Positions 16,554-61,286 of a DNA stretch of 64,000 nt are shown here, piece after piece (position 1 is the stretch's first letter; every line of letters starts with the position of its first letter). The stretch spans positions 832,001 to 896,000 of the forward strand of contig CAXXGO010000006.1 in assembly GCA_963666835.2 (NCBI GenBank), read 5' to 3'. A program made the position numbers and the translations under genes. Origin of the DNA: Phycisphaerae bacterium. GTDB lineage: Bacteria > Planctomycetota > Phycisphaerae > UBA1845. The notes beneath the pieces are model-generated. The model did not search any database and was not told the DNA's origin. It worked only from the letters and a program-made list of their open reading frames with translations.

Positions 16554-18326
16554 TTATCTCGACGGGCACAACGTCCGGCTCATGCTCCTGGCATTCCATA
16601 CCTCGAACTCACCCGCACCGTTGATCAGATCGATCACGCGGAGGATGTCCGCAGCATTCCAAGCACCGCTACGGTTGATGTCCGTGTGATACTCAACCTG
16701 CGTTCCCGGCGGGCCATTCAGAGAATCGATCAGCCCCTGGATATCGGCCGCATTGGTGACTCCGCTGTTATCCGCGTCGCCCGGCAGGTATCCCATGCAC
16801 CATTCCTGGTCCGTCGCTATGTGCTTCAGGCACGTCCAGTGGTCCGCGGTGATCGAGCGATCCAGCCGAACTGTGATTGTATTGTAATTGGCATCAGCTT
16901 CGATGGAGTCTATGGCCGGCGGGATTAGCTCGGCCGGGGCGGTGCTAATCGAGAAATCTACTTTCTCGATCTCGTCCTCCATTACGTGCGGATCGCACAG
17001 CATGGTCAGAACGAACTTGTCCCAGCCATCGGCCAGGGTGTTGTCGTTGATCCCGTGAGGCTGCCGTGCGTCCACCTCGCAGTTCGGCGGGAAGATCGAG
17101 ACGACATCCGTCATACTGCAGTCGTCGACGCAGTCGCCACCGAGGCAAACCGTACCGGGGCCACATTCTACGATTGACTCTTCGTGACATTGCCCGGTGC
17201 AGGGATCGCACAAGGCCACGAAGCAGTCCGGATCATCCGGTGGATCGCAGGTGACGCCGGTGCACTGGTCACCACCGAAGTAGACCATCAGCGACTCGTG
17301 TCCACCTACTAATGGATCCTGGTAATACACCGAATGGCGACCCTCGTCGGTCTGCATGTAGGTTGTCTGCAGTTGGTTATCGAACCGCAACTGGACCTCA
17401 AATGTGCCGCAATTGCCCTCTTTGACCTCCAGCAGCATCGCGCCCAGATAATACAGTTCAGATTCGTCCGCACCATAAGGCATGGTAACCGGAGCAGCCC
17501 CCGGCATGATCCCGGATCCAACCTCTACACTCTCGTTCGTTTCGTCACCGGGGAAGACGACCGCGAGGATGTTGACACCCCTGAACATGAAATCGTCATC
17601 AGCCTTGTCGATATACACGGACGACTCCCGTCCACATGAGACGTCGTCTATGCACTCGGAACTGTCGCACGTGCAGAAACTATTGCTCAAATCCCAGTGG
17701 TCGTAGCATGTCTGGTCCCACGAGCAGTAACAGTCGCCATCCTCATATCCGCAGGGCACCGCGGCAATCGCCATCCCCGGGTTCACTCCCCCGTTCCAGA
17801 GCGAAGCGTCAGCATCGAGTGTCCACTGGAACTGCCCGACGTTCGGCCACGGATCGCACGTGTCGTGCACACAAGGCCCATACGCCGCCCCGCAATCGTC
17901 GTCGTCGTCGCATCTCTCTCGATCCTTCAATCCCTGGCAGTGCTTGAACTTACAGGGATCGCTCGAACTACCCTCTTCCCCGCTCCACGCCTGATCGCAG
18001 AAACCGTAGTCATAAATGGCATTGTCACGATGCAGCCAGCATCTGCCCTCCGTTGAGTCGCTGTCCCAGTCGTGTACGAACACCTTGACAAGAATGAAGT
18101 CCCCCTCTTGGAGTCCGCCTGTCACGTCTGCGTCAAACAGCTCATCCGTGAGAGGGGTGCCATTGTACGCCGACTCCCAGGTTCCCTCGTCAAAACGAAG
18201 AACGTCGACCGCCTTGACGGCGAAGGTCGCTCTCGCATACTTCAACGATGCGTTAACGACGGAGCCTGTTGCCAGGAACCCCACGATGCCGCAAACCAGA
18301 CAGAAGCACCACACCGACTTTCTCAT
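16554..18326 (-). CDS. Secreted Cys-rich protein; C-terminal region paralogous to 14970..16187
   Basis: Signal peptide; shares FPPNCxVDARQPH...WCMGYLPGDA...DINRSG...CPSR with its neighbour. Confidence 0.7.
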   Translation of the reverse strand: MRKSVWCFCLVCGIVGFLATGSVVNASLKYARATFAVKAVDVLRFDEGTWESAYNGTPLTDELFDADVTGGLQEGDFILVKVFVHDWDSDSTEGRCWLHRDNAIYDYGFCDQAWSGEEGSSSDPCKFKHCQGLKDRERCDDDDDCGAAYGPCVHDTCDPWPNVGQFQWTLDADASLWNGGVNPGMAIAAVPCGYEDGDCYCSWDQTCYDHWDLSNSFCTCDSSECIDDVSCGRESSVYIDKADDDFMFRGVNILAVVFPGDETNESVEVGSGIMPGAAPVTMPYGADESELYYLGAMLLEVKEGNCGTFEVQLRFDNQLQTTYMQTDEGRHSVYYQDPLVGGHESLMVYFGGDQCTGVTCDPPDDPDCFVALCDPCTGQCHEESIVECGPGTVCLGGDCVDDCSMTDVVSIFPPNCEVDARQPHGINDNTLADGWDKFVLTMLCDPHVMEDEIEKVDFSISTAPAELIPPAIDSIEADANYNTITVRLDRSITADHWTCLKHIATDQEWCMGYLPGDADNSGVTNAADIQGLIDSLNGPPGTQVEYHTDINRSGAWNAADILRVIDLINGAGEFEVWNARSMSRTLCPSR

Positions 18327-32311: not shown

Positions 32312-33475
32312 GTGCAGTACACGGGTCTTTGTGACCGCGCGCGGAGCGAAATCCCGAGACTCGGATGTGGTGGCTTCGGCACCCTCAAGGGTTGGGTGCC
32401 AGATAACCACCGCATAACGGATACCGGAGAGAGCGTCCTTCTTCCCGGGGCGGCGTTGATCGTGGACGGCTCGTGGACCCATAGCGGAACATTCACCGCC
32501 CTCGACGCCTCTGTGCTATTCAAGATGGCTTCGACGAGTGGGACCATGCATCTGTCCGACGTCGAATTCGTGGCCGGGGAGCTTGCGGTGCTGTCAACCG
32601 GGAGCGTGATCACTCACGGGGAGTTCTACTCCGACGTTCACAACGACGGCGAGATTATAACAACGGCTGACACGTTGATCGTCGGCGATCTCGTCAACAA
32701 CGCAAGCGGAGAGATCACTGTTCAGGTGGGAACAACGACCCTGATCGGGTCCTTAACCAATAACGGCACGATCGTCGGAGATCTACAAACCGCGCGGAAG
32801 ATGGGCGGGCAGCGGGCAGATGGTGATGGAATCGCCGTTCAGGGCGACTACATGGCCGGGGCGCTCTCTGCGCTGGTCATGCCCGATGCGGTCTGGGCGA
32901 TTTCCGTCAAGGGGCGGTATGACAATGCGGTGAACGACAGCTCGCGGTTTGACATGGTGCAAGCCGAGCTGGCCTTCGTCGGCACGGGGCAGACCCAGAC
33001 CGTCGAGGTGATGAGCACGGATATCGGAGCCGACCCCATCGGGCTTGATCGCAGAAGACCGGGGCATTTTCCGATCGGGACGTTTCGGGTCGGACCGACG
33101 GCCACGACCGTGGTGTTGGTTGATGCCCACGACAATGACAACCTCGGGCAGGCCGCTCGGGAGGCGCTCTATGTGCGCGACCTCATCGTGGAATCCGGAG
33201 CAACGTTGGCTACGGGCGAGCATGCGGTCTATTACGAATCGTTGGTGCTAAACGGCGGTGTCGATAATGCTGACAACCTGGTGGCGGTGGTCAGTGCCGA
33301 TCCGGACATCAACGGGGACGGGCAGGTGGACCTAGCTGATTATGCCAAGCTGGCCGAGTGCCTGACCGGCCCGAACGGAGGTATCGCCCCGACCTGCTCC
33401 GCCGCCGACCTCGACGGCGACCAGGATGTCGACCTGGGCGACTTGGCCATACTCCAGTACTCGTTCGTCGATTAG
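32312..33475 (+). pseudogene. Probable C-terminal fragment of a large secreted beta-rich protein with a dockerin-like module
   Basis: No signal peptide or clear RBS; ends in DINGDGQVDLADY...DLDGDQDVDLGDL. Confidence 0.55.
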
Positions 33476-41345: not shown

Positions 41346-42818
41346 CTAGAGCAGCGACAGAATCTGGGTGGCTTGCTGGTTTACCACTCCGAGCAGGGCA
41401 ACGCCCGCCTGCATGAGCACTTGCTGTTGATTCAGAGTCGCCGTCGCGATGGCGTAGTCCGTATCGCCGATCACCGAAGACGCTTCGGTCAAACCGGTCT
41501 GGCTGGCCTGCAACGCGTTGATTGCGCTACCGACCTGGAACTTCTGGAAGCCCCCGACGCGTCCTTGAATGGAGGCGACGTCGGAGATGGCCGCCCGAAT
41601 CGAGTCCAGCGCTCCGGCCACGTCGGTCCGCAAGTCGACGGAACCACCGGACTTGAGCTCTGACAGCCGCGAGACGGCGCCGCCTCCGCCGAGGTTATAT
41701 GTGGCGAGCGAGTCTATCCCGATCGTAGCCCGGGTGGTCGATTTGGTTCCGAGCTGGAAGGTGGCGCCCCCTGTGGCCCGGACCGTGAACGTCGAGGAGG
41801 TGTTGGCCCCCGTGTTGCCCTTGCCGAAGTCCTCGTCAAGGGTGAACGACATACTCAGCCCGTTGGCGCTGTAGGAAACGTCAAGGCCATCGGTTCCCGT
41901 GGTCTGCCCGTTGATGGTGATGACGGCGTCGGTGCCCACGGTTTTGGTGACGTCGGTGAAGTCGTTGGCGGTGCTGCTGTCGCTGGTCGCGGTGCCCCAC
42001 GAGCTATTGACCGTACCGCCGGAGATCAGCTCGAGGCTCACGAAGGCGTCGGCTCCGTACGCGGTGGAACTCAAGGTGATACCGGTGGCAGCGACCATCG
42101 CGGACACGCCGGTCTGGTCTTTGGCGGCGTTGATGGTAGCGACTACCTGGGCCTGGGTCTGCCCGCTGACGATTGAGAGGGTCGCTGCTCCGTCGGCGCC
42201 GGCGACTACGATCTCGGTCGTGCCGGTAGTCTTGGTCGTAGCGGCCGGAGTCATCAACGCGGCGGTGGCCTGAGCGGTCGCGGCGGAGGTGACCCGCGAT
42301 ACTGAGAGGGTGGTATTCGACGTGCTCTGGCTGCGGGAATAGACCCTCAGCGACTCGACGTAGTCGGAGTCGACGTTAGCCACGGCGATTCCGAAGGTTC
42401 CGTCGAGGAGCTTCTTGCCGTTGAAGTTGGTCTGGTTGACGATGCGGTCTATCGCCGAGAGGGCGTCATCAACCTGCGATTGGTTGGCGGAGATCTCCGA
42501 GGCGGTGAGGTTGGCATCACTCGCCGAGGCCTGGACCAGCGTCTGGATCTCGCCGAGCAGGTTCGATACTTCGGTGATCGCCTGGTCGGCGACCGTGAGC
42601 ATCGAATCCGTTCGCTGGTTGTTGACCAGTGACGTTTGCACCGCCCGCAGCTCGGCGTTGATCCCCTGCAGGGCGATCAGCCCGGCCGGGTCATCCTTGC
42701 CGGCGTTGATCCGCTTACCGGTCGTAAGCTGCGACATCGTCGTGGACTGGGCGGCCGCCTGCTGACTGAGGATGTTCAGCAGTGTCGTTGTGTTCGAATT
42801 CGTAATCGTGAGTGCCAT
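41346..42818 (-). CDS. fliC: Flagellin (copy 1)
   Basis: QLTTGKRINAGKDDPAGL, TNFNGKKLLDG, DTDYA and terminal ILSLL. Confidence 0.93.
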   Translation of the reverse strand: MALTITNSNTTTLLNILSQQAAAQSTTMSQLTTGKRINAGKDDPAGLIALQGINAELRAVQTSLVNNQRTDSMLTVADQAITEVSNLLGEIQTLVQASASDANLTASEISANQSQVDDALSAIDRIVNQTNFNGKKLLDGTFGIAVANVDSDYVESLRVYSRSQSTSNTTLSVSRVTSAATAQATAALMTPAATTKTTGTTEIVVAGADGAATLSIVSGQTQAQVVATINAAKDQTGVSAMVAATGITLSSTAYGADAFVSLELISGGTVNSSWGTATSDSSTANDFTDVTKTVGTDAVITINGQTTGTDGLDVSYSANGLSMSFTLDEDFGKGNTGANTSSTFTVRATGGATFQLGTKSTTRATIGIDSLATYNLGGGGAVSRLSELKSGGSVDLRTDVAGALDSIRAAISDVASIQGRVGGFQKFQVGSAINALQASQTGLTEASSVIGDTDYAIATATLNQQQVLMQAGVALLGVVNQQATQILSLL

Positions 42819-43193: not shown

Positions 43194-44534
43194 CTACCCT
43201 GCTTTGGCCGGCACGTAACGCCGGCCGGCGAAGACAACCGTGCCGGCCACCAGGGCCAGAAGGGTCATAACAATGACACCCCACGCGGAAACGGTCGGGA
43301 TGTCGTCGCCGTCGATCATGATGTCGACAATAACACCCTCCAGAACGGTCAGGCCGTAGGGAAACTCGTCGGGCAGTAAGTACCAGCCGTTGTAAGGCCC
43401 GCCCCAGCCGAAGTTCAGGTGGAAGTAATCGTCCGAATTGTACCCGTCAACCACAACGTTGTGCCCGGAAGTCCATTCCGCGTTGACCACCGCCAGATGG
43501 GCCGGGTAGGCGTCCTTCATGTTCTGCGCCAGGCGGTCGTAGACGTCGGCGTCGCCGTCGTCCAGCAGCTCGGCCGTGGTGCAACTGAACTTCGTGTACG
43601 CGGCCATCGCCTGGCTTACTCCGAACGTGCCGGAGCCGCCGGGGTTGTAGACCTGGGTGGCCGCGACCCCGCAAGCGAAAGTCAAAGCCGCCTTGTCGGA
43701 AGCAGTCAGCGCGATACCTCCGGCGTAGTGGTCTTCGAGCGTATCGAGGTAGCCGTTGAGTTCCGGAAATGAGGGGAAATCGTACGTTGCGTAATCGTTG
43801 TCGATCCAATACTGATTACCGCCGTAGTTGTGGTAGTAATCGTCGCCGTCGTCGAAACGCGTACCGTTTATCCGCTCGTGATAGTTGAGGATCTGCGCCA
43901 TCGCCACCGACGGACAGCCCGCGATGCTCCGAGATCCACTCGACAAATCGATCGGACAGTAGTTGTTGTACGGTGGGTCCTGATCCCAGTTGGTCTCGAT
44001 CCAGCCGCCGGTCGAGGTTGTCCCCGGTGCCGGCCATTGCTCGAGCAACCGTCCGTCCGGGGCGGTGGGGGTCACATCGAGCAACTCCGCCCACGCCCGA
44101 TGGCGGACCCGGCGGACCGCATCCGGAAGAACGGGTACGTTCTGCAGGCGGCGCTTGAGATCCGCCCGCAACATCGCGGCCAGCGGGTTGGCGCGCTCAA
44201 GATCACTACCGAAGTCGTTGTCGAACGAGTAGGCGATGACCGGGGGCAGCTCTCGGTCGGCGGCCACGACCACAAAGCCGCGCGGCTGAAGATCGAATCG
44301 GTGGTACAGGGTGACCTTGTCGTCGTCGTTCGTAACCGAACCTACCTCGCCGACCGTGAAGGTCTCGGCCAGCCCGTGCCGCGCCAGATGCGCTTCGGTC
44401 ACTCGAACGGCGGACGCTTGGTCCACAAATGATGCGCCGGAGTCCGGCAGATCCGGCTCCACCCCGAAGGCGGCGGCGGACAGATTCCAGGCCAGTGCGA
44501 CGGCTAGAAAGCGGACCTTGTACTTCGAAGTCAT
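43194..44534 (-). CDS. Peptidase C10 (streptopain-like) with prodomain and IPTL-CTERM sorting signal
   Basis: WDQDPPYN, AGCPSVAMAQI, GHNVVVDGY, HLNFGWGG; tail IPTVSAWG-TM-RR. Confidence 0.9.
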   Translation of the reverse strand: MTSKYKVRFLAVALAWNLSAAAFGVEPDLPDSGASFVDQASAVRVTEAHLARHGLAETFTVGEVGSVTNDDDKVTLYHRFDLQPRGFVVVAADRELPPVIAYSFDNDFGSDLERANPLAAMLRADLKRRLQNVPVLPDAVRRVRHRAWAELLDVTPTAPDGRLLEQWPAPGTTSTGGWIETNWDQDPPYNNYCPIDLSSGSRSIAGCPSVAMAQILNYHERINGTRFDDGDDYYHNYGGNQYWIDNDYATYDFPSFPELNGYLDTLEDHYAGGIALTASDKAALTFACGVAATQVYNPGGSGTFGVSQAMAAYTKFSCTTAELLDDGDADVYDRLAQNMKDAYPAHLAVVNAEWTSGHNVVVDGYNSDDYFHLNFGWGGPYNGWYLLPDEFPYGLTVLEGVIVDIMIDGDDIPTVSAWGVIVMTLLALVAGTVVFAGRRYVPAKAG

Positions 44535-44955
44535 ACCTACCCCTCCTGTTTGCGGAAACGACTCTGGCGCATTGTAGCGGATCATCGCGTGGGAGCCCAG
44601 ACTTTCTTCTTAGAGGACATACAAACCGACAATTGCCAGCCGCCCTGCTCCATCCGCCACGCGAAACAGCCTCTCCGATTGAAGCCGTTTACGCGGTGAA
44701 ACCGGCCCTGGCGCTCGAGGGGCAAGTCTCTTCGGGTGGTCGGTGCCCGCTTCGTCCGCTCTTGCAGGCCGGCCGATCTTCCAGTCGGCCCACACCGCCC
44801 GGAGGTTTCGGATGAAGTAGCACCACACGCAAGTTCCCGCAATAATACGAGCGTAGCGTACGCGTTTTCGCCGGGAACGGCTGGGGACGGACTCATTGAT
44901 AGGCGACTATCCCGGATTCGCGATATGCCGAGCAGAGCTCCAGAGACTTGATCCC

Positions 44956-48843: not shown

Positions 48844-50316
48844 ATGGCACTGACGATCACGAACACTCAGACGATGACGCTGCTGAACATCATCAACCGG
48901 CAGACGTCCGCCCAGACCACCACGATGAAGCAGCTTACCACCGGCAAGCGGATCAATGCCGGTAAGGACGATCCCGCCGGGCTGATCGCGCTGCAGGGGC
49001 TTAACGCCGAATTGCGCGCGGTGGAGACGTCCCTGGTCAATAACCAGCGCACCGACTCCATGCTCACCGTAGCCGACCAGGCCATCGCTGAAGTATCCAC
49101 CTTGCTCGGCGAGATCCAGACGCTGGTACAGTCGTCGGCCAGCGACGCGAATCTCACCGCCGCCGAGATCTCCGCCAACCAGTCGCAGGTTGACGACGCT
49201 CTCTCGGCCATCGACCGCATTGTCAATCAGACCAATTTCAACGGCAAGAAACTGATCGACGGCAGCTTCAGCATCGCGGTCGCTAATGTCGATTCGGACT
49301 ACGTCGAGTCGCTTCGGGTCTATTCCCGTAGCCAAAGCACCTCGAACACGACTCTCGCCGTGTCCCGGGTGACCTCCGCGGCTACCGCCCAGGCCACCGC
49401 CGCTTTGATGACCCCGGCCGCTACCACCAAAACCACCGGCACGACGGAAATCGTCGTTGCGGGCGCCGACGGTGCGGCCACCCTCTCGATCGTCAGCGGG
49501 CAGACCCAGGCCCAGGTGGTTGCCACGATCAACGCCGCCAAGGACCAGACCGGCGTATCCGCTATGGTCGCCGCTACCGGGATCACCTTGAGTTCGACCG
49601 CTTACGGGGCCGACGCCTTCGTAAGCCTCGAGCTGATCTCGGGCGGTACGGTCAACAGCTCGTGGGGAACCGCGACCGGCGACAGCAGCACGGCCAACGA
49701 CTTCGCCGACGTCAGTAAGACCATCGGTACGGATGCGGTCATCACTATCAACGGACAGAGCACCGGCACCGACGGCCTCGATGTATCCTACAGCGCCAAC
49801 GGGTTGAGCCTGTCCTTCACGCTCGATGAGGACTTCGGCAAGGGTAACACGGGGGCGAATACATCCTCGACCTTCACCGTGCGGGCTACCGGAGGGGCTA
49901 CCTTCCAACTGGGGACCAGCTCCGCCACCCGAGCGACAATCGGGCTCGATTCGCTGGCGACGTATAACCTCGGCGGCGGAGGGACGATTGCCCGACTGTC
50001 TGAGCTCAAGTCCGGCGGGTCCGTCGATCTGCGGACCGACGTTGCCGGAGCGTTGGATTCGATTCGGGCGGCTATCTCCGACGTCGCGTCCATCCAGGGG
50101 CGAATCGGCGGGTTCCAGAAGTTCCAGGTCGGCAGTGCGATCAACGCCCTGCAGGCCAGCCAGACCGGGTTGACCGAAGCGGCAACCGTGCTAGGCGACA
50201 CTGACTTCGCCGTGGCAACCGCCGAGCTGAACCAGCAGCAAGTGCTGATCCAGGCGGGTATCTCTCTGCTGGGCGTAGCGAATCAGCAGGCGGCCCAGAT
50301 TCTGTCCCTGCTCTAA
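48844..50316 (+). CDS. fliC: Flagellin (copy 2)
   Basis: Same flagellin motifs; about 91% amino-acid identity to copy 1 by manual count. Confidence 0.93.
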   Translation: MALTITNTQTMTLLNIINRQTSAQTTTMKQLTTGKRINAGKDDPAGLIALQGLNAELRAVETSLVNNQRTDSMLTVADQAIAEVSTLLGEIQTLVQSSASDANLTAAEISANQSQVDDALSAIDRIVNQTNFNGKKLIDGSFSIAVANVDSDYVESLRVYSRSQSTSNTTLAVSRVTSAATAQATAALMTPAATTKTTGTTEIVVAGADGAATLSIVSGQTQAQVVATINAAKDQTGVSAMVAATGITLSSTAYGADAFVSLELISGGTVNSSWGTATGDSSTANDFADVSKTIGTDAVITINGQSTGTDGLDVSYSANGLSLSFTLDEDFGKGNTGANTSSTFTVRATGGATFQLGTSSATRATIGLDSLATYNLGGGGTIARLSELKSGGSVDLRTDVAGALDSIRAAISDVASIQGRIGGFQKFQVGSAINALQASQTGLTEAATVLGDTDFAVATAELNQQQVLIQAGISLLGVANQQAAQILSLL

Positions 50317-51826: not shown

Positions 51827-53425
51827 CTATTTGCATACTCCTTTGAAGCACCGGTTCGAGCAGCATTCGTCGTTCGACGAACACGATTCGCCGCGCGAGA
51901 GGCACGACGTGCATCCGGGGATCGGGGTGTACACGCACCCACTCACGGAATCGCACGTGTCCGTTGTGCATTCGTCGCCGTCGTTGCAGGTGATCGGATC
52001 GTTGACACACGTGCCGCCCGAGCAGCTATCGGTAGTGCAGGCGTCCGCGTCGTCGCAGTCCATCGGGGTGTTCACGCACAGGCCCGCGTCACACGTATCG
52101 ATCGTGCAGGAGTCTCCGTCAGCGCACTGCGAATCAAGGCTACACGTGAATGAACAGTCGATGGCACAGTTGACTTCGTCTTCAGTCCCTTCGCAGACGG
52201 CATCACCGCAGCACGAGCCGACCGCCGGCTCAGTGGTGCAGGTGTTGCCGCTCGCGGTGCAGCGCGCATCGCCGCAGCCGACCGGGTTCGTGCCGGCGCC
52301 GTCACCGCAGCAGTACCGGCCGCTGGGCTTGCCGCCCTGGTTCCCATTGCAGTCGGCCGGGCACGACAGGCAATCCTCCCCGTCGCCGATCTCGCACACG
52401 CCGTTACCACAGCTTGCTCCGCTGCCGGCAAAGCAGTCGGTGGGGCAGTTGTTGCAGTCTTCTCCGACTTCGCAGGTCCCGTCGGAGTCACAGTCACCCG
52501 TTCCCATGCAGACCAGTTGCAGGCCGCAATCCATGAGGTCGTCGCAGTCGGTGTAGCCGTCGCAGTCCTCGTCGATACCGTCATCACAGACCGACTCGTG
52601 CAGCGGTGGAGCCCCGCAATCCGTGAAGCAATCGCAGGCAATCTCACCCGGATCGCACACCAGGTCCCCGTCACAGACAACGTCCGCACAAAGCGGATCC
52701 GCCGAGCAATCCTGGTCGGTGCAATCCGGGAAGCCGTCACAGTCGTTGTCCTTGCCGTCGCCGCAGGTGGACTCGCTGACCGGAGGAGCTCCGCAATCGG
52801 CCGGACAGTTGCAGCCGTCTTCGCCGGCAAAGCACGTGCCGTTGCCGCACTGAATCGGTACTCCCGTCAACGTAACGGAATCGAAGAAGTGCGTCCGTTG
52901 CGTCTCCCAGACGATGTCGTAGCCGAACGCGACGTATACCGTGGTGAGAGAACTGACCGACAGGGTCCGCTGCATACTGAATGAATCCCAACCGTCCTCA
53001 GTGATGGCGTCGATGCGCTCTCCGTAGCTGGTCTGCGTAAAATCCGATTCCATGGTGGGCTCGTAGGGGCCGATGAACCCGATCGCGTACCACGACGTCA
53101 GGTCGTTATGGCCATCGGACCACAGGTGATAATTCAGCCCAATCGTCCACGTGCCGGCGGGGAGCTGCAGCTCACGCACCATGTAGACCTGGCCGTCGTC
53201 ATTCCTGCCGTCGGCCGTGAAATCAAGTGATGACAGACCATCCTGGGCCTGCTCCGTGGAGGGCCACACCGACCACGCGATGGGTGGATTGCCGATCCGA
53301 GCGCGCCAGGGCCCGAACCCGTCCTCAAAGGACTCGAAGATCGTGTCTGCGGTCGCTGGGGCCCCCGCCGTCAACAACCCGAACACAAACGCGATCGCGC
53401 AGATTGCTCGCATGCTTCTCAACAT
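51827..53425 (-). CDS. Secreted protein with a long Cys-rich repeat region
   Basis: Signal peptide; CGNGxC, CxDGxDxDCDGxxDC and CxDxDxCTxDxC repeats; C-terminal C-C-CC-C-C unit. Confidence 0.8.
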   Translation of the reverse strand: MLRSMRAICAIAFVFGLLTAGAPATADTIFESFEDGFGPWRARIGNPPIAWSVWPSTEQAQDGLSSLDFTADGRNDDGQVYMVRELQLPAGTWTIGLNYHLWSDGHNDLTSWYAIGFIGPYEPTMESDFTQTSYGERIDAITEDGWDSFSMQRTLSVSSLTTVYVAFGYDIVWETQRTHFFDSVTLTGVPIQCGNGTCFAGEDGCNCPADCGAPPVSESTCGDGKDNDCDGFPDCTDQDCSADPLCADVVCDGDLVCDPGEIACDCFTDCGAPPLHESVCDDGIDEDCDGYTDCDDLMDCGLQLVCMGTGDCDSDGTCEVGEDCNNCPTDCFAGSGASCGNGVCEIGDGEDCLSCPADCNGNQGGKPSGRYCCGDGAGTNPVGCGDARCTASGNTCTTEPAVGSCCGDAVCEGTEDEVNCAIDCSFTCSLDSQCADGDSCTIDTCDAGLCVNTPMDCDDADACTTDSCSGGTCVNDPITCNDGDECTTDTCDSVSGCVYTPIPGCTSCLSRGESCSSNDECCSNRCFKGVCK

Positions 53426-54597: not shown

Positions 54598-57069
54598 ATG
54601 AATGACTATCCATTCCGGGTCGCCCGCCGGTTTCAGCGGGCCGGTTCGCTCGGAGTTGCCGTGGCCTTCGGTATCGTGACCCTTGGCGGGGTAGGCGCGG
54701 CACACGCGGCCGATCGCATGGTGTTATGCGAGGAATTCACGAACCAATATTGAGCGGCGTGCTCTTACGCGGGTCCCGCGTTAGGCTACCTCGTCGACAT
54801 CTACCCTGAGTCGTTCGCGTTCGTACAGTATCACATGTTCGACGACTACGATGACCCGTGGAGCGATGGTCGGTGGTCGTATTTCGGCGCCGAGCACACT
54901 CCGACGACCATCTTCGACGGGGTTGATTACGTCGAGGGCGGAATCAGCGATACTAACCAGCAGTATCACATCTTCCGAACCAACCACTTTCTCCCGCAGC
55001 GCGCGGTGCCGACGGATGTGACGCTCGAGCTGGCCGGTGAGTTCGTTACCGGGCAGACTTACCAGATCACGGCCACCGTGGGCATCGAGGCGGGGGGAAC
55101 GGGCAAGACCGTCCGGGTCTACATGGTGCAAGTTCTGGACCACTGGCCGGCGTCGCCGAGCTACTCGCGCAACACGTTCAAGCAAGCGGGCGACGTCAAA
55201 GAGATCACCCTCGCTCCCGGCGAGACCGATGCTGCGGTGGAGATGTTTACGTTCGACGCGGATAGCTGGGCGAATCAGGAGGAGATCCGGATCATCGCGT
55301 GGGCCCAGGCCGCGGAGGATGCCGGTCCGGTCGAAATGTACCAAGCCGCGGTTCTGAACTGGCCGCTGGTCTCCGCCCCCGGCGACGCCGACGGTGATGG
55401 CATTCTGGACGGGGCGGACAACTGCCCGCAGCACTACAACCCGACCCAGGACAACGGCGACACCGACGATTTCGGCGACGTGTGCGACAACTGCGATACG
55501 ACGGACAATGCGGACCAGGACGATGGTGACGACGACAGCGTCGGCGATGCCTGTGACAACTGTCCGGCACTACATCATCTCGATCAGGGCGATAACGACG
55601 GCGACGGGGTCGGTAATCCGTGCGACTGGTGCCCCGACGTTTCCGCTCCCGGCGGGGTGGACGAAGACGGGCGTTCCCTGGGAACGATCGACCTCGATTG
55701 CGACGTGGACGGCGACGACCTGGCCCTGTTCAACGGGTGTTTCACCGGTCCGGATATCACGGAACCGCCTCCGGGATGTGATCCGGCCGATTTCGCCCGG
55801 GCGGATCTCGACGGAGACATTGACGTCGACCTGGGCGACCGGGCGATCTTCGATCAGAACTACACCGGCCCGCTGGTCGGGCCGGCGTTGTACACCGGGT
55901 CCACCGCCTGTTCTACTTGCCACTCGACGAATCACACGGAATGGGCCGAGACCATCCACGCCACCGCGTTCGATACACTGGTAGCGAGCGGAGACGGAGA
56001 CAACCCCTTGTGCTTCCCGTGCCACACGGTGGGGTACGCGGAGGCGAGCGGTTTCGTCGACTTGGCCACCACACCGCAACTTGCGGACGTTCAATGTGAA
56101 AACTGCCATGGAGCCGGCAGCAACCACATCGCGTCTCCCGGCAGCGCGTCGATGACGATTGACCTGGCCTCGAACCTCTGCGGAGCGTGCCACCAGTCAT
56201 GCCACGGGTTGTGCGGGGACGATCACCATCCCCAGTTCGAACAATGGTCGGAGTCCAAGCACTCCACGGCGCTGAGCGACATTCAGTGGGAGCCCGGCAC
56301 GGTTGCAGAGTGCCTCGAATGTCACTCCACGGACTACCGCATGGCCCCCGCAGGGGATAAGCCCGGCCTGTTCGAAGTAGTGTTCGATCTAGAGTGCGTG
56401 GCCTGCCACGACGCTCACGGAGGGCCCAACGTCGGCCAGCTTCGCCTGCCGCCGCGGCAGTTGTGTGCCGAGTGCCACACCACCGGCGTGGTGGTGCCCG
56501 GCGAAGAGCCCGAGCAACCGCAACTCGAAGCCCTGCACGGGGAAGGCGGCTTCAAGCTGGACGGCACCTCGTTGAAAGGGCCTTATACCGAGCACTGGTG
56601 GGGAATCCCGACGGAATGCGCCGCCTGCCATGTGTTCGCCGAGCCCTACGGCGGGCCGGATCAGCCGGTCAACAGCGGGCACACCTTCGAAGCGAACCGG
56701 CGGGCTTGCGGCCCGTGCCACACGGAAGAATCCGCCAACGCCCTGCTGGGCATGTTGCAGGGAGAGATCTCGGCACGCCTGGCGGGCATCGCCCATTACT
56801 TCGATCCTGGTGATCCGCTGTATGTTGACCCGGCGACCCTGACCCCGGAGCAGTTGGCCCGGTACAACGTTGCCAAGTTCAACTACGAGTTCGTGATCGC
56901 GGACAGGTCCCACGGCGCGCACAATCCCGGCTACGCCCGGGCGTTGCTGGCCCAGACTGAGTTCTTTTTCGGGATCACACCCTGGTTGCTTCAACCGGGA
57001 GGAGACGATATTCCCGCGCCGGCCGACGGTGTTCTGGAGATTGCAGAAGGAGCGGAGGTGGGCCGATGA
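54598..57069 (+). CDS. Putative selenoprotein: UxxC thioredoxin-like (Omp28-type) domain, TSP3-type repeats, dockerin-like module and nonaheme cytochrome c
   Basis: GGAG then ATG 54598, signal peptide ending AHA, then RMVLCEEFTNQY-TGA(54751)-AAC, in frame with track ORF 54835..57069. Nine CxxCH motifs. Confidence 0.85.
54766..54783 (+). promoter_or_regulatory. Candidate bacterial SECIS hairpin
   Basis: ACGCGG-GTC-CCGCGT stem-loop; apical G about 20 nt after the in-frame UGA. Confidence 0.65.
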
Positions 57070-58058
57070 GGATCACTCGACGTGAGTTCCTGAAAGCGGC
57101 TGCGGCCATGGTCGCGGCGGGGAAGATGGCTCCCGTAGCATTCGCGAACCTGCAGGAGACTCTGCGGGGCGAAGGCGCGCCACGAGTCATCTGGCTGCAA
57201 GGGGCGGGTTGCGACGGATGTGCGATCTCGCTGTTGAATTCCGTGCATTACACGACGGTCGACGACCTGCTGGTCAACACGATCGATCTGGAGTTCCAAA
57301 ACAACCTCATGGCCGCGGCCGGTGATCTTGCGGTATCGATCGCGCAAGCCGCCGCCGCCGAGCCCGGCTATATCCTAATCGTTGAGGGGGCCGTCCCCAC
57401 CGGAGCGAGCGGCCAGTATTGCCGGCTGTGGTCGGGAATGACGATGCACAGTGCCCTGCTCGCGTACGGCCCGGACGCCGGCAGTATTATCGCGTTGGGG
57501 GCTTGCGCATCGTTCGGGGGGGTCTCGGGTGGGGCGCCGAACCCGACCGACGCCCAAGGTGTGGGCGACATCATCGGAGACGACCCGCGGTTGATTAACA
57601 TCCCAGGTTGTCCGGCCCACCCCGATTGGCTTGTGGGCACTCTGACGTACCTGCTGACCACGGGGCATACTCCGCCGTTGGATGAGTATCACCGGCCTTT
57701 GGAGTATTTCGGCAAGCGGATTCACGACAACTGCTTCAAGCGGCGCGAGTATTGCGGTACCGGGGTTTTTGCCTCCAACCTCAGCGAAGAGGGCTGCATG
57801 GAGTTCCTCGGCTGCAAGGGCAAGAAGACCTACGCTGATTGCCCGATCCGCAAGTGGAACAGCGGTGAAGAGGGCGGCAGCGGTGTGAACTGGTGCATCG
57901 GGGCGCGGAGTCCGTGTCTTGGTTGCGTGGAGCCCACTTTCCCGGACGGGATGTCTCCGTTCTACGTGTATTCGCCTACCCCGGAGAAACTCGAGGGGGG
58001 CGCCGGCTCCGAAACGCTGCAGACCAAACCGCAATCGATTGACAAGAAGCCGAGTTGA
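57066..58058 (+). CDS. [NiFe]-hydrogenase small subunit, Tat-exported (group 1a-like)
   Basis: TRREFLK Tat motif; CDGC, GACASFGG, PGCP, HDNC and WC...PCLGC. ATGA overlap with the cytochrome gene. Confidence 0.95.
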   Translation: MRITRREFLKAAAAMVAAGKMAPVAFANLQETLRGEGAPRVIWLQGAGCDGCAISLLNSVHYTTVDDLLVNTIDLEFQNNLMAAAGDLAVSIAQAAAAEPGYILIVEGAVPTGASGQYCRLWSGMTMHSALLAYGPDAGSIIALGACASFGGVSGGAPNPTDAQGVGDIIGDDPRLINIPGCPAHPDWLVGTLTYLLTTGHTPPLDEYHRPLEYFGKRIHDNCFKRREYCGTGVFASNLSEEGCMEFLGCKGKKTYADCPIRKWNSGEEGGSGVNWCIGARSPCLGCVEPTFPDGMSPFYVYSPTPEKLEGGAGSETLQTKPQSIDKKPS

Positions 58059-58106
58059 AACACCGGCTGGTGAGCTAAGAAGCCCTAGTCATTTGGGGAG
58101 AGATAT

Positions 58107-59555
58107 ATGGCGACGACGATCACAATTGACCCGGTAACCCGCATTGAGGGCCACCTCGAGATCGAAGTGACCGTCGATCTGGTCGGCGGTGACCAGCAGG
58201 TCATCTCCGCCAAGAGCGTGGGGAAGATGTTCCGCGGGTTCGAGATGATCCTGGCCGGTCGGGACCCGCGCGATGCCGCGCAATACACCCAACGCATTTG
58301 CGGAGTGTGTCCGGTGTCTCATGCGATGGCCTCGACCAGGACGCTGGACAACGCCTTTGGGGTCACTCCCCCGGACAACGGCCGGATCGTGCGCAACTTG
58401 ATCCTCGGGGCGAACTTCATCCAATCCCACGTGTTACACTTCTACCACCTTTCGGCGGTAGACTTCATTGATACGACGGGACTGCTGGATCTTTCGCCGT
58501 GGGCTCCGCGCTACGTCACTGCGGACATGGCGACCGGGGCTACGGCCGGCACGCTGGTGAACAACTACCTCGCGGCACTTGCTATCCGACGTAAGGCGCA
58601 TCAGATGGGGGCTATTTTCGGAGGCAAGCTCCCGTGTACCGGTTCTTTTGTGGTCGGTGGGGTCACTGAAGTAGTCAGCGCGGAGAAGATCGCCGAGTTT
58701 AGGAGTCTCCTGACGGAAATTCGCAGCTTCATCGATAACGTGTATATAGCGGATGCCACGACGGTGGCAGGTCTGTTCCCGGATTACTACTCGCTTGGTG
58801 TCGGAAACGGCAATCTGCTTGCCTATGGCGCTTTCGACCTTAACTCCGCGGGCACCAGCAGACTCTTCGCAAGCGGGCGGCGTACGGACGGCTCGGCGCA
58901 AGCGATGGACCCGGCCGACATAACCGAACGGGTAACGTATTCGTGGTATACGCCGGCCTGCGACGACCTTAACCCCGCCGCCGGCGCGACGGAGCCGGAC
59001 GCCGCCAAGCCCGGGGCCTATTCCTGGATGAAGGCCCCGCGCTATCTGAATAAGGCGCACGAACTGGGACCGCTGGCGCGGATGTGGATCAACGGGTATT
59101 ACACCAACGGCGTATCCGTGCTCGATCGGATCGTAGCCCGGGCGCAGGAGGCGAAGCTGATTGCCGATACGATGGACGGCTGGCTGGATCAACTGGTTCC
59201 GGGCGATCCGGTTTATCAGTCCAGTTCGATTCCAACTACCGCCAGTGGAGTGGGGCTGACGGAGGCGCCTCGCGGAGCGCTGGGGCATTGGATGGACATC
59301 GATAGCTCGGTGATTTTGCGTTATCAAGTGGTTACGCCGACCAATTGGAATGCCTCGCCGCTGGACCATCTGAATCAACCGGGTCCGATCGAAGCGGCGC
59401 TGGTGGGTACTCCCGTTGCGGATATGAGCCAGCCGATCGAGGTTCTGCGCGTGGTTCACTCCTTCGACCCGTGCCTGGCTTGTGCGGTCCACATGGTCCG
59501 GCCGGACGATCGATCGAAGGGTTCGAGAATAGTGATTCAGCCGGGTATCGCCTGA
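58107..59555 (+). CDS. [NiFe]-hydrogenase large subunit
   Basis: DPVTRIEGH, RICGVC, EAPRGAL and DPCLACAVH (TGC, so Cys) followed by a cleavable tail. Confidence 0.96.
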   Translation: MATTITIDPVTRIEGHLEIEVTVDLVGGDQQVISAKSVGKMFRGFEMILAGRDPRDAAQYTQRICGVCPVSHAMASTRTLDNAFGVTPPDNGRIVRNLILGANFIQSHVLHFYHLSAVDFIDTTGLLDLSPWAPRYVTADMATGATAGTLVNNYLAALAIRRKAHQMGAIFGGKLPCTGSFVVGGVTEVVSAEKIAEFRSLLTEIRSFIDNVYIADATTVAGLFPDYYSLGVGNGNLLAYGAFDLNSAGTSRLFASGRRTDGSAQAMDPADITERVTYSWYTPACDDLNPAAGATEPDAAKPGAYSWMKAPRYLNKAHELGPLARMWINGYYTNGVSVLDRIVARAQEAKLIADTMDGWLDQLVPGDPVYQSSSIPTTASGVGLTEAPRGALGHWMDIDSSVILRYQVVTPTNWNASPLDHLNQPGPIEAALVGTPVADMSQPIEVLRVVHSFDPCLACAVHMVRPDDRSKGSRIVIQPGIA

Positions 59556-59592
59556 CCGGGTCGGCCGGCTGATGGTGTAGGTTCTAACTGAC

Positions 59593-60138
59593 ATGATCTT
59601 GCCACCACGACAAACCGAACGCGCCCGCGTGGAGAAGTGTCCGGTCCTCATTCTGGGCGTGGGCAACATCCTGATGCGCGACGAGGGCGTGGGCGTGCGG
59701 GTAATAGAGGCGATGGGAGAACGCCCGATCCCGCCCGGCGTCGAGTTGTTCGACGGTGCCACGGCCGGGATCGATCTGCTCGATGCCCTGGCCGATCGGC
59801 GCAAGGTCATCGTGATCGATGCGATGGACGGACATTGCGAGCCGGGCACCGTACTGCGGCTGTGTCCGGAGGATCTGACTCCCAGCCCCGGGCAGAGCGT
59901 CTCGTTGCACGAGGTCGGCTTCCTGGAAACTCTGACAATTGCCGGGCGGCTTGGCGCCGCTCCGGAGGAAGTGGTTATCTACGGCGTCCAACCCCAAGTG
60001 GTGGAGTGCGGATTGGATCTGTCCCCCGAGATCTCGCGGTTGGTCCCGCGGATCATCGAGCTGGTGATGGCGGATGTGGATAGTGGCGTGTGCGGCTCCG
60101 TTCCGCGGCAAGAGCCGGAAAGAGAAAGCTCATTATGA
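59593..60138 (+). CDS. Hydrogenase maturation protease (HyaD/HybD family)
   Basis: LGVGNILMRDEGVG, VIDA and SLHE motifs. Confidence 0.95.
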   Translation: MILPPRQTERARVEKCPVLILGVGNILMRDEGVGVRVIEAMGERPIPPGVELFDGATAGIDLLDALADRRKVIVIDAMDGHCEPGTVLRLCPEDLTPSPGQSVSLHEVGFLETLTIAGRLGAAPEEVVIYGVQPQVVECGLDLSPEISRLVPRIIELVMADVDSGVCGSVPRQEPERESSL

Positions 60139-61286
60139 AGCGTTTGGCACTTTCATCGATAGTCCTTTTGGCAGCGCTGGGTTTCTCCGGAACGGCTTGG
60201 GCGGAGCCCGCGTGGGGCGTCAACTGTTTGAGTTGTCACGGTGGCTGGCAGACCGACACGGTGTTCATCTTGAACGAAGACGGGACGGCCGATCCCGACG
60301 AGAGCGCCACCGGCGCACCGGATCGCGGGAGCCTTCCCGTTTTCATGGCTTCCCCGGGTGACACCAAGACGCTGGAGATGGAGCTGGTCGGGCTGTCCCC
60401 CGAAGATACTTATGCGGTCGAGCTCAAGCGGCTGCGTTTCCTCGGAGTTGTCTCCGGCAAAGAGCTGACGTACACCGGTGATTGTGCGTGGCCTTACTGG
60501 GGCGAGCCCGGAAAATACTTCACAGAACCGCCGATTAGCTATGAATGGGGCTCAGATCCGACAGCATTCAGCTTCGATCTGACCGTGCAACCGGATGCAC
60601 CCTACGACTACTATGACCTGGTTTTCGCGGTAGCGGGCAAATGGGCGGCCGACGGCGGCCTTTTCTATGATGAGCAGCATTTCTATCTGCGCGTGACCGA
60701 GATACCTTCGGCCCCTCTGGCTATCGATGAGCCCAAGAACCGGTACATCTCCTTCAATGCCCAGGCCGTGGGTACGTCAGCCATCCAAGTGGAATTGGTG
60801 GCCAGCGATCCGTTCCCGGGTTCCAGCGGAATGCTCGGCTGGGTGGAGGAGCCGGACGCAAACGGTCTGGCCGGTATTGGGGATACTCCGGTCTTCCGCA
60901 CTTGGGATGAATCGGCCGTTCACATTGGTGACTGCGGAATCGTGCCGGGATCCGAATACCAACTCCGGGCTTCATTCGACGGAGAGACGATGTCCGATCC
61001 GACAACGGTTAACACGGCGGACGTACCGGCTCCGAAGTATTGGGCGGACATGGTCGGCGGGTTCGTCGGCGATGCGTGGTTGGGCCCGAACGGGATCGTC
61101 AACATGAGCGACATCCAGGCGGCCCTGCAGCGTTTCTCCGGGTCCCCGAGTGCCCCGCCGTTGACCTGGGTCGATCTCGACAGCGAAACGCCCAACGGTC
61201 TTATTAATATGACGGATATTCAGCAAGCGGTCGGCGGGTTCAAAGGCATGCCGTACCCGTTCGGCGATCCGGTATCCTGCCCGTAA
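60135..61286 (+). CDS. Secreted monoheme cytochrome c-like protein with C-terminal dockerin-like module
   Basis: ATGA overlap with the protease gene; signal peptide ending AWA; CLSCH; paired PNGIVNMSDI and PNGLINMTDI loops. Confidence 0.75.
   Translation: MKRLALSSIVLLAALGFSGTAWAEPAWGVNCLSCHGGWQTDTVFILNEDGTADPDESATGAPDRGSLPVFMASPGDTKTLEMELVGLSPEDTYAVELKRLRFLGVVSGKELTYTGDCAWPYWGEPGKYFTEPPISYEWGSDPTAFSFDLTVQPDAPYDYYDLVFAVAGKWAADGGLFYDEQHFYLRVTEIPSAPLAIDEPKNRYISFNAQAVGTSAIQVELVASDPFPGSSGMLGWVEEPDANGLAGIGDTPVFRTWDESAVHIGDCGIVPGSEYQLRASFDGETMSDPTTVNTADVPAPKYWADMVGGFVGDAWLGPNGIVNMSDIQAALQRFSGSPSAPPLTWVDLDSETPNGLINMTDIQQAVGGFKGMPYPFGDPVSCP

Follow-up and report, generated by a model that had tools for sequence, protein, structure and literature searches.

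The stretch of DNA analysed here, referred to as the window, comprises 64,000 nucleotides (nt) of the genome of Phycisphaerae bacterium GCA_963666835.2 (contig CAXXGO010000006.1, positions 832,001-896,000 of the forward strand). On its plus strand it carries a hydrogenase cluster of five co-oriented genes, established by listing of open reading frames (ORFs) and translation, which encode a secreted multihaem cytochrome with a putative selenocysteine, the small and the large subunit of a [NiFe] hydrogenase, a maturation protease and a secreted monohaem protein (Table 1). The products of the first and the last gene are named P1 and P5, and the N-terminal domain of the latter is named P5N. Start and stop codons overlap in the sequence ATGA between the genes for P1 and the small subunit (57066-57069) and again between those for the protease and P5 (60135-60138), and the remaining intergenic gaps amount to 48 nt between the two subunit genes and 37 nt between the large subunit and protease genes. 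Gene content, common orientation and both overlaps are in full agreement with an initial annotation of the window. Promoter-like and terminator-like sites occurred at the cluster only at chance level in a consensus scan, which proved uninformative. Seven sequencing runs from two studies were listed as containing this DNA, with no RNA run among them.

Table 1 Features of the hydrogenase cluster and related elements. Positions refer to the window unless another locus is named; aa, amino acids; MFE, minimum free energy; SECIS, selenocysteine insertion sequence; TSP3, thrombospondin type 3; pLDDT, predicted local distance difference test.
Feature	Position	Strand	Basis
P1, putative secreted selenocysteine-containing nonahaem cytochrome, 823 aa + stop	54598-57069	+	Translation with TGA read as U; Pfam and NCBIfam matches
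P1 Sec-type signal peptide, residues 1-38, predicted cleavage after AHA	54598-54711	+	Sole hydrophobic window; orthologs conserved from here on
P1 redox module, thioredoxin-like [U/C]xxC part and Omp28-type beta-sandwich, residues ~38-255	54709-55362	+	NF045500, 2r2c
In-frame TGA, U52, motif U-A-A-C	54751-54753	+	TGA/Cys column in orthologs
SECIS-like hairpin, core stem 54767-54772 / 54776-54781, loop GTC 54773-54775	54764-54784	+	MFE fold and ortholog comparison
P1 TSP3 calcium-binding repeats, residues ~262-353	55381-55656	+	Profile and Pfam TSP_3
P1 dockerin-like pair, Asp-rich loops with helices, residues ~361-427	55678-55878	+	Model, weak profile matches
P1 OcwA-like nonahaem cytochrome c domain, residues 430-823, 9 CxxCH	55885-57066	+	PDB profile, Pfam
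[NiFe] hydrogenase small subunit, Tat signal	57066-58058	+	TIGR00391, TIGR01409
[NiFe] hydrogenase large subunit	58107-59555	+	NF033181
Hydrogenase maturation endopeptidase, HybD/HyaD type	59593-60138	+	TIGR00072 (141 bits, cut-off 47.45); Pfam HycI
P5, secreted monohaem protein, 383 aa	60135-61286	+	Founder of unannotated family
P5 N-domain (P5N), residues 24-200, one CxxCH (C31, C34, H35) on beta-sandwich	60204-60734	+	Model
P5 C-terminal module, 183 residues, ends in two degenerate N-x-x-D-I-Q repeats	60735-61283	+	pLDDT mostly <50
Otherwise unannotated secreted protein ending in Dockerin_1	32312-33472	+	Over Pfam cut-off
Otherwise unannotated secreted protein ending in Dockerin_1	14973-16187	-	Over Pfam cut-off
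Otherwise unannotated secreted protein ending in Dockerin_1	16557-18326	-	Over Pfam cut-off
Stand-alone redox-module paralog, locus L027	11175-11840	-	
Stand-alone redox-module paralog, locus L032	12848-13564	-	
Stand-alone redox-module paralog, locus L032	14877-15608	-	
Stand-alone redox-module paralog, locus L033	12238-12921		
Stand-alone redox-module paralog, locus L043	9659-10348		
Stand-alone redox-module paralog, locus L045	10830-11558		
Stand-alone redox-module paralog, locus L051	11104-11754		

In a Kyte-Doolittle scan with a 19-residue window, no hydrophobic segment above 1.6 was detected in the small subunit, the large subunit or the protease, and the only such segments of P1 and P5 are their N-terminal signal peptides. 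Neither a gene for a cytochrome b nor one of the HybAB type is present among the ORFs between window positions 52000 and 64000. These results confirm the earlier statement that the cluster lacks such genes and that the small subunit lacks a C-terminal transmembrane anchor. The extracytoplasmic location proposed at the same time is borne out by the signal for twin-arginine translocation (Tat) on the small subunit and by the Sec-type signals on both haem proteins.

The small subunit matches TIGR00391 with 230 bits (cut-off 179.5), and its Tat signal, MRITRREFLK, scores 19.3 with TIGR01409 (cut-off 16.7) and 17.8 with the Pfam model TAT_signal, where it stays under the cut-off of 22.7. The large subunit reaches 603.2 bits with NF033181 (cut-off 600), contains the two metal-binding motifs RICGVCPVSH (RxCGxCxxxH) and DPCLACAVH (DPCxxCxxH) and carries a C-terminal extension of 20 residues. 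When compared with solved structures, the small subunit finds its best match in 2wpn_A (E 4.5e-64), with 1cc1_S also among the nearest, and the large subunit in 5jsu_B, the large subunit of a [NiFeSe] hydrogenase (E 3.6e-126, 425 bits), followed by Desulfovibrio [NiFe] enzymes at about 344 bits and by E. coli hydrogenases 2 and 1 at about 284 and 270 bits. The membrane-linked enzymes of E. coli and Ralstonia thus rank behind both the [NiFeSe] and the Desulfovibrio [NiFe] enzymes. Selenocysteine as the nickel ligand (DPUxxCxxH), the mark of [NiFeSe] hydrogenases proper, is not encoded; the codon specifies cysteine. One genome per species was scanned for relatives of the large subunit, which yielded 72 loci, mostly in metagenome-assembled genomes labelled Phycisphaerae, Phycisphaerales or Planctomycetota. 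Cysteine occupies the position in all 70 relatives with a readable second motif (the other two are cut). The score is 526 with the HysA model NF045518 (cut-off 780) and 253 with NF045520 (cut-off 470). From its sequence, the hydrogenase is thus classified as an ordinary soluble periplasmic [NiFe] enzyme of the Desulfovibrio type that belongs to the NiFeSe clade and has cysteine at the active site. An additional cysteine of the small subunit lies at the medial cluster, where its 'NWC' aligns with the 'NWC' of 1cc1 and 2wpn and the standard enzyme 3myr_A has 'SWP'. Because of this NiFeSe-type residue, we infer a chain of three [4Fe-4S] clusters. The genome also contains hypD elsewhere, and two additional large subunits are encoded, one of them group-1-like with 40% identity (C6:433349-434836), the other more distant.

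The lack of a membrane subunit, singled out in the initial annotation, is not unusual, since the solved structures closest to the enzyme are those of soluble periplasmic [NiFeSe] and [NiFe] hydrogenases from sulfate reducers. As the closest relatives in the NiFeSe clade are soluble, the absence of a membrane subunit is the expected state. Soluble periplasmic hydrogenases of the NiFeSe clade, which we take to fall into HydDB group 1a, have a well-known physiology: Group 1a enzymes are soluble and reduce periplasmic cytochrome c3, and soluble periplasmic hydrogenases with cytochrome c as acceptor are textbook knowledge for sulfate reducers. HysAB of Desulfovibrio vulgaris and Desulfomicrobium baculatum (PDB 5jsu, 2wpn, 1cc1) provides the best sequence match for both subunits. 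In HysAB as in the enzyme studied here, a Tat signal is present, membrane anchor and cytochrome b are missing, the medial cluster has the extra cysteine, an endopeptidase is dedicated to the enzyme, and the acceptor is presumed to be a c-type cytochrome. The differences are that the enzyme in the window has cysteine instead of selenocysteine at its active site, that its host is a planctomycete, and that its cluster encodes presumed acceptors of its own, a beta-sandwich monohaem protein and an OcwA-like nonahaem fusion, rather than relying on cytochrome c3. The two partner proteins P1 and P5 are the new part of the system and are not described in the literature searched. These searches found nothing on a group 1a hydrogenase in Phycisphaerae or on an Omp28 selenoprotein and, judged from titles and abstracts, nothing relevant on Phycisphaerae with NiFe hydrogenases and multihaem proteins.

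When the in-frame TGA is read as selenocysteine, P1 is a protein of 823 residues in which a signal peptide is followed by '...VLCEEFTNQYUAACSYAGPAL...'. Without read-through, the ORF would start at position 54835 and encode 744 residues, and the product would be devoid of the signal peptide that c-type cytochromes require. The full-length set of P1 sequences comprises 21 members, i.e., the window copy and 20 orthologs, one further locus (L040) being cut by the end of its contig. All 21 are 801-859 residues long with nine CxxCH motifs at matching positions. In the column of U52, 12 of them have TGA and nine have a cysteine codon (TGC or TGT). TGA and cysteine forms are likewise present among nearby paralogs of the redox module; such stand-alone copies lie a few kilobases from the hydrogenase cluster in six loci and have the same hairpin.

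The hairpin in question begins 11 nt 3' of the UGA, in keeping with the spacing rules for bacterial SECIS elements. Among the 18 TGA-bearing family members, all six stem pairs form in ten, five in seven and four in one, and compensatory changes from G-C to C-G and to A-T are observed in the stem. The loop starts with GT in 17 of the 18 TGA forms and in only three of the nine cysteine forms. Note that the conserved peptide YAGPA partly forces the stem, so that the SECIS signal lies in the synonymous positions, and that a single-sequence RNA fold around the TGA is no better than shuffled controls (z -0.30), which leaves the comparison of orthologs as the ground for the SECIS assignment. The genome encodes tRNA-Sec (C6:1320413-1320508) and SelB (302 bits, cut-off 242). 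The TGA/cysteine column, the SECIS-like hairpin, tRNA-Sec and selB bear out the description of P1 as a selenocytochrome: The in-frame TGA is a credible selenocysteine codon, and P1 would be a true selenoprotein fusion.

The module that carries U52 matches the NCBIfam entry NF045500 (Omp28_seleno) with E 1.6e-28 over model positions 32-312 of 377. At 100.1 bits it attains half of the cut-off of 200 and is classified as a relative of this family, not as a member by NCBI's rule. Its beta-sandwich half is modelled with pLDDT values of 84-96 and resembles the Omp28 domain of Porphyromonas gingivalis (PDB 2r2c, E 4e-5, TMt 0.59). Weak profile matches suggest that the [U/C]xxC half is thioredoxin-like, and one database relative of the module is named thiol-disulfide isomerase/thioredoxin. 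P1 thus shares with NF045500 and Omp28 the N-terminal module and the beta-sandwich, and stand-alone relatives with the U/C site exist near some of the loci; the difference is that in P1 the module is fused to a cytochrome. This fusion is present in all 20 orthologs with an intact N-terminus as well as in the window copy, and E9, E10, C16 (U) and C19 of the module are invariant.

The module is followed by repeats of the form DxDxDGxxDxxDNCP that match solved TSP3 domains. The profile of a P1 segment named A2, which covers this region, aligns with COMP and thrombospondin-2 (3fby, E 1.9e-42), and Pfam TSP_3 is found at E<=0.01 in all 21 sequences, the window copy scoring 21.1 bits, under the cut-off of 25. 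The initial annotation had assigned pairs of dockerin-like calcium loops to both haem proteins. For P1 this holds in so far as residues ~361-427 contain two Asp-rich loops, each followed by a helix (three helices in the model, A2 positions 336-345, 360-366 and 376-384, pLDDT 68-79), and homologous modules of relatives match Pfam Dockerin_1 (PF00404) or come close to doing so. It is 42% identical to the TSP3-plus-dockerin tail of a decahaem cytochrome in another locus (L038, 22.6 bits on Dockerin_1) and gives weak profile matches to 8x39 (E 0.0037) and to the GH9 dockerin 4fl4_A (E 0.35). The segment itself has no Pfam match at E<=1, and in a Foldseek search with the A2 model the matches were taken by the beta-sandwich. 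For P5 of the window the assignment fails, as it has no match to Dockerin_1 and the canonical module is absent. Across the families, Dockerin_1 is detected at E<=0.01 in 15 of 30 P5 sequences (best 4.2e-9) and in two of 21 P1 sequences.

The C-terminal half of P1 is a nonahaem cytochrome domain with ten invariant histidines beyond those of its CxxCH motifs. It matches OcwA of Thermincola potens (6i5b_A, E 3.3e-24), 6qvm (E 2e-11) and cytochrome c554 (E 1.4e-6) in the PDB, and Cytochrome_C554 and Paired_CXXCH_1 in Pfam. OcwA is described as a cell-surface protein with nine haems that serves as terminal reductase in extracellular electron transfer; it has a C-terminal three-helix bundle, forms a dimer, contains two high-spin haems, also reduces nitrite and hydroxylamine and is akin to the NrfA, HAO and MccA families (PMC6703420). 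P1 resembles it in its nine CxxCH motifs, in similarity over most of the haem domain and in kinship with cytochrome c554 and the NrfA/octahaem families. It differs by three additional N-terminal modules (selenocysteine redox module, TSP3 repeats and dockerin-like pair), by its location beside a hydrogenase in a Gram-negative-type envelope and by an extra pair of cysteines, Cys535-x3-Cys539, which directly follows haem motif 4 (CGACHQSCHGLCG; window 56197-56214, residues 534-539) and is invariant in all 21 sequences. The two cysteines could be linked as a disulfide, bind a metal or serve as relay towards the selenol module. The haem domain is unique in the genome, in which 17 open frames with at least three CxxCH motifs, two of them with 16 and two with 13, suggest a cytochrome-rich periplasm.

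A multihaem cytochrome with selenocysteine is not without precedent. MccSep of Geobacter sulfurreducens (PDB 9wt8) is described as a pentahaem selenoprotein that acts as polysulfide reductase, and like P1 it is a periplasmic multihaem cytochrome c with one selenocysteine (PMC13510729). The sequences of the two proteins show no genuine relationship (E 0.17 across 24 residues). In MccSep, the selenocysteine sits within the haem domain beside a Cys-ligated haem, whereas that of P1 resides in a separate [U/C]xxC module about 380 residues before the first haem motif. MccSep therefore serves as a mechanistic precedent for haem-fed selenocysteine catalysis on S-S bonds and not as a relative of P1.

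P5 starts with a signal peptide (MKRL...AWA), followed by a conserved EPAWGxNCLSCH and some 165 further residues. It has no match in Pfam or NCBIfam. The structural model shows a confident beta-sandwich over most of residues 36-195 (pLDDT 81-94 for residues ~41-100 and 71-90 for ~131-190), interrupted by a loop (101-132) with values below 50. Foldseek returned only generic beta-sandwiches for this model (accessory domains of glycosidases, lytic polysaccharide monooxygenase, cohesin, SoxYZ, reeler, p53) with TMq <=0.23 and no cytochrome. A profile search of the PDB with P5N found nothing below E 0.16, and in the ESM Atlas P5N reached a best feature score of 0.85 with unnamed clusters that gave no lead. 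A profile of 30 family members collected 309 representative clusters at a threshold of E<=1e-3; this number falls to 192 at 1e-10 and to 47 at 1e-30. The CxxCH motif is present in all 113 full-length members, and W119, Y160, D158 and Y184 are nearly invariant. P5 is the founder of a family so far without annotation, and its predicted fold is not that of a classical cytochrome. His/Cys ligation of the haem via Cys117 was considered and rejected, as this residue is near-invariant only among close orthologs and occurs in 28 of the 113 members of the wider family.

Typical P5 orthologs have about 250 residues and end in a dockerin pair; the ortholog in L041 is an example with a canonical dockerin. 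Of the 30 family members scanned, two instead terminate in an IPTL-CTERM-like sorting tail and three contain a Big_7 domain. An IPTL-CTERM-like tail is also found on a peptidase of the C10 (streptopain-like) type that is encoded in the window (43197-44585, minus strand), is secreted and has a Spi inhibitor prodomain. The C-terminal module of P5 in the window has no Pfam match, and tblastn finds it only in loci L025 and L044 and as a separate gene in L033. In the database protein P0010 (450 residues), a maturation protease is joined to a P5-type domain (residues 202-385). This may be a real fusion or a read-through gene call, and either way it documents the adjacency of protease and P5 in another genome.

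Conservation of the gene order in relatives had been named beforehand as a test that could refute the significance of the cluster. The order recurs: tblastn places P1 directly upstream of the small subunit gene in 21 of the 72 loci, and all 21 have P5N downstream of the large subunit gene. The protease gene is kept between the large subunit gene and P5N in 18 of the 21, the exceptions being L044, L046 and L091. One locus (L030) is cut by the end of the contig, P5-type genes flank both sides in L086, where P1 is absent, and a P5-type gene lies upstream of the small subunit gene in five loci (L038, L039, L042, L047, L050). In three of these (L038, L047, L050), the unit is adjoined by a different, decahaem cytochrome (Cytochrome_cB, MtrC-like) that ends in TSP3 repeats and a dockerin-like module. 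The flanking genes are not common to the loci, and any other gene cluster recurs in a few of them at most. Among 23 loci, no further conserved neighbours such as a membrane complex or hyp genes emerged from an ORF calling that was crude and in which antisense frames sometimes won. Of 278 other genomes belonging to the order, 57, spread over four families, contain P5N, whereas none of 400 genomes sampled elsewhere in the phylum yielded it when only eight candidates per genome were scored. In the order, 49 of 64 P5N matches are located within 3.5 kb of a large subunit ortholog in the same orientation (43 downstream, six upstream); the other 15 are weaker paralogs or fragments at contig ends.

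We therefore lean, with modest confidence, towards the view that these genes form a conserved cluster for a Tat-exported soluble hydrogenase that passes its electrons to two haem c proteins of its own and not to a membrane cytochrome b. P1 and P5 are the likely recipients of the electrons taken from hydrogen. In the mechanism we envisage, the protease would trim the large subunit, and the dimer of the two subunits would be exported by the Tat system and stay soluble in the periplasm. There, hydrogen would be oxidized and electrons would leave via the distal [4Fe-4S] cluster, on balance probably to P5, whose association with the hydrogenase is the most faithful and which for this reason is likely to be the first acceptor. 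P5, or the hydrogenase itself, would then reduce the OcwA-like nonahaem domain of P1. As terminal reductase, P1 might act either directly at its haems, as OcwA does, or through the N-terminal [U/C]xxC module. The fused module, with a SECIS kept in 12 of 21 sequences, suggests that the haems feed a selenol or thiol site, and since the selenocytochrome appears to be real, the link to selenol/thiol chemistry drawn in the initial annotation is plausible. Such a route, in which the [U/C]xxC site would cleave S-S, Se-S or O-O bonds (polysulfide, disulfides, selenite, peroxide), is a tentative proposal that we hold less firmly than electron transfer to P5. More doubtful is that the TSP3 repeats and the dockerin-like pair hold the cytochromes on a calcium-dependent structure of the envelope.

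Several observations weigh against this scheme. Hydrogen oxidation and substrate reduction that both take place in the periplasm without a quinone step leave energy conservation unexplained. Nine of the 21 P1 sequences make do with cysteine, so that selenium is not essential to the design. The [U/C]xxC half of P1 reaches pLDDT values of only 25-40 in the model, and its thioredoxin profile matches are weak (2ypm at E 0.0045; Pfam Thioredoxin at E<=0.01 in two of 21 sequences). Among the 113 full-length P5 family members, no conserved His, Met or Cys outside the CxxCH motif offers itself as sixth haem ligand. Finally, 44 of the 72 loci with a related hydrogenase have neither P1 nor P5N, and the hydrogenase clade can therefore work with other partners.

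In principle, the fate of the electrons in P1 can be explained in another way: P1 may be only a wire or terminal reductase of the OcwA type that acts at its haems on extracellular or soluble acceptors such as Fe(III), humics or nitrite, with [U/C]xxC as an accessory for disulfide maintenance or protection. The haem domain is indeed the part of P1 with clear homology to a characterized terminal reductase, selenocysteine is replaceable, the variant loci place a decahaem cytochrome without a [U/C]xxC module beside the hydrogenase, and the genome has many other multihaem frames. On the other hand, the redox module is never missing from an intact ortholog and its key residues do not vary, a SECIS under selection in 12 of 21 sequences would be costly for a mere accessory, and the invariant cysteine pair beside haem 4 is a hint that thiol chemistry may take place in the haem domain as well. 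All in all, we consider it rather unlikely that P1 is a wire and nothing else. Reverse flow, in which reduced periplasmic cytochromes would feed the hydrogenase and hydrogen would be evolved as an electron sink, appears improbable. Enzymes of the [NiFeSe] clade are good producers of hydrogen and relatives among the Phycisphaerae are often described as fermenters, but the potential of haem c carriers is as a rule too positive for them to reduce protons, the nearest characterized relatives of the hydrogenase act in periplasmic hydrogen uptake, and a terminal-reductase-like haem domain combined with a reductive [U/C]xxC module fits an electron-accepting role. That the haem proteins are chance neighbours, functionally unconnected to the hydrogenase, is very improbable indeed, given the same order in 21 loci of different genomes with unconserved flanks, the hydrogenase-adjacent position of most P5N matches and the codon overlaps at both junctions.

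A further proposal, which is compatible with electron delivery to P1 and P5, concerns the place where this would happen. Cytochromes of the P1 and P5 types might dock via calcium-dependent dockerins onto cohesins of the envelope, beside a free hydrogenase. Half of the P5 sequences scanned match Dockerin_1, and three types of cytochrome beside the hydrogenase carry the same TSP3 and/or dockerin-like cassette. The genome also contains a candidate scaffold locus (L097, G000:C1:921000-931000) that encodes a 965-residue protein with a lamin-tail domain and two cohesin candidates, one of 1388 residues with nine disintegrin repeats, a marginal cohesin (23.0 bits) and a dockerin, the other of 469 residues with a cohesin of 29.9 bits (cut-off 24.1). 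The larger candidate is located at G000:C1:924165-928328 (L097:3166-7329), with the cohesin segment at its residues 465-598, and the smaller at G000:C1:928641-930047 (L097:7642-9048). This lamin-tail/cohesin locus resembles the 'planctosome' of Andrei et al. 2019 (PMC6461901), i.e., cohesin/dockerin/TSP3/lamin-tail assemblies proposed for other Phycisphaerae. The genome and the cytochromes of the cluster family share TSP3, dockerin, cohesin and lamin-tail domains with the planctosome, whereas the latter is a hypothesis that was put forward for peptidases and not for redox proteins and is not known to be backed by demonstrated binding. Set against docking is that neither haem protein of the window passes Dockerin_1, its own modules, unlike those of the planctosome and clostridial type I dockerins, staying below the Pfam threshold. 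Furthermore, Dockerin_1 matches 31 places in the genome, three of them on unrelated proteins of the window (Table 1), which marks the dockerin as a general tag; some P5 orthologs carry a sorting tail in its stead, and no cohesin gene lies near the cluster. The scaffold tethering claimed initially is thus not supported in the form in which it was stated, and docking as such seems to us about as unlikely as the wire-only explanation for P1. Even less probable is the most far-reaching version, a redox machine outside the cytoplasm, independent of quinones and assembled by calcium, in which a free hydrogenase would deliver electrons to P5 as a shuttle and on to a scaffold-docked P1, whose selenocysteine head would act as a hydrogen-driven polysulfide, disulfide, selenite or peroxide reductase. 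If true, P1 would stand for a new class of enzymes in which haem wires are connected to a U-x-x-C site, and for the first time a redox cargo would be known for a cohesin-dockerin system in planctomycetes.

The cluster is neighboured by a MazG-like gene and by genes for a secreted Cys-rich protein and a CotH/beta-helix protein on the opposite strand. The protein very rich in cysteine, encoded just upstream of the cluster (51830-53425, minus strand), has 532 residues with CTDC repeats of the Dictyostelium type. Farther away, the window contains two genes for flagellins of 490 residues (41347-42818, minus strand, and 48844-50315, plus strand), which form an inverted repeat of 1472 nt with 83% complementarity, 6025 nt apart; the genes for the C10 peptidase, RsgA and orotidine monophosphate (OMP) decarboxylase lie between them.

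Returning to the soluble hydrogenase with its two haem c partners, the P5 family, with some 300 representative clusters, provides hydrogenase research with a testable new redox partner, and P1 is a natural fusion of a selenocysteine/cysteine redox module to an OcwA-like haem wire. The planctosome idea, too, becomes testable through the TSP3 and dockerin-like tail shared by three kinds of cytochromes associated with the hydrogenase, as both the cargo and the candidate cohesins are defined. If the haems of P1 do feed the selenol, haem-driven reduction of S-S bonds would have been solved a second time, independently of MccSep, and hydrogen oxidation would be coupled to the chemistry of sulfur, selenium or peroxide in a group that is widespread but uncultured.

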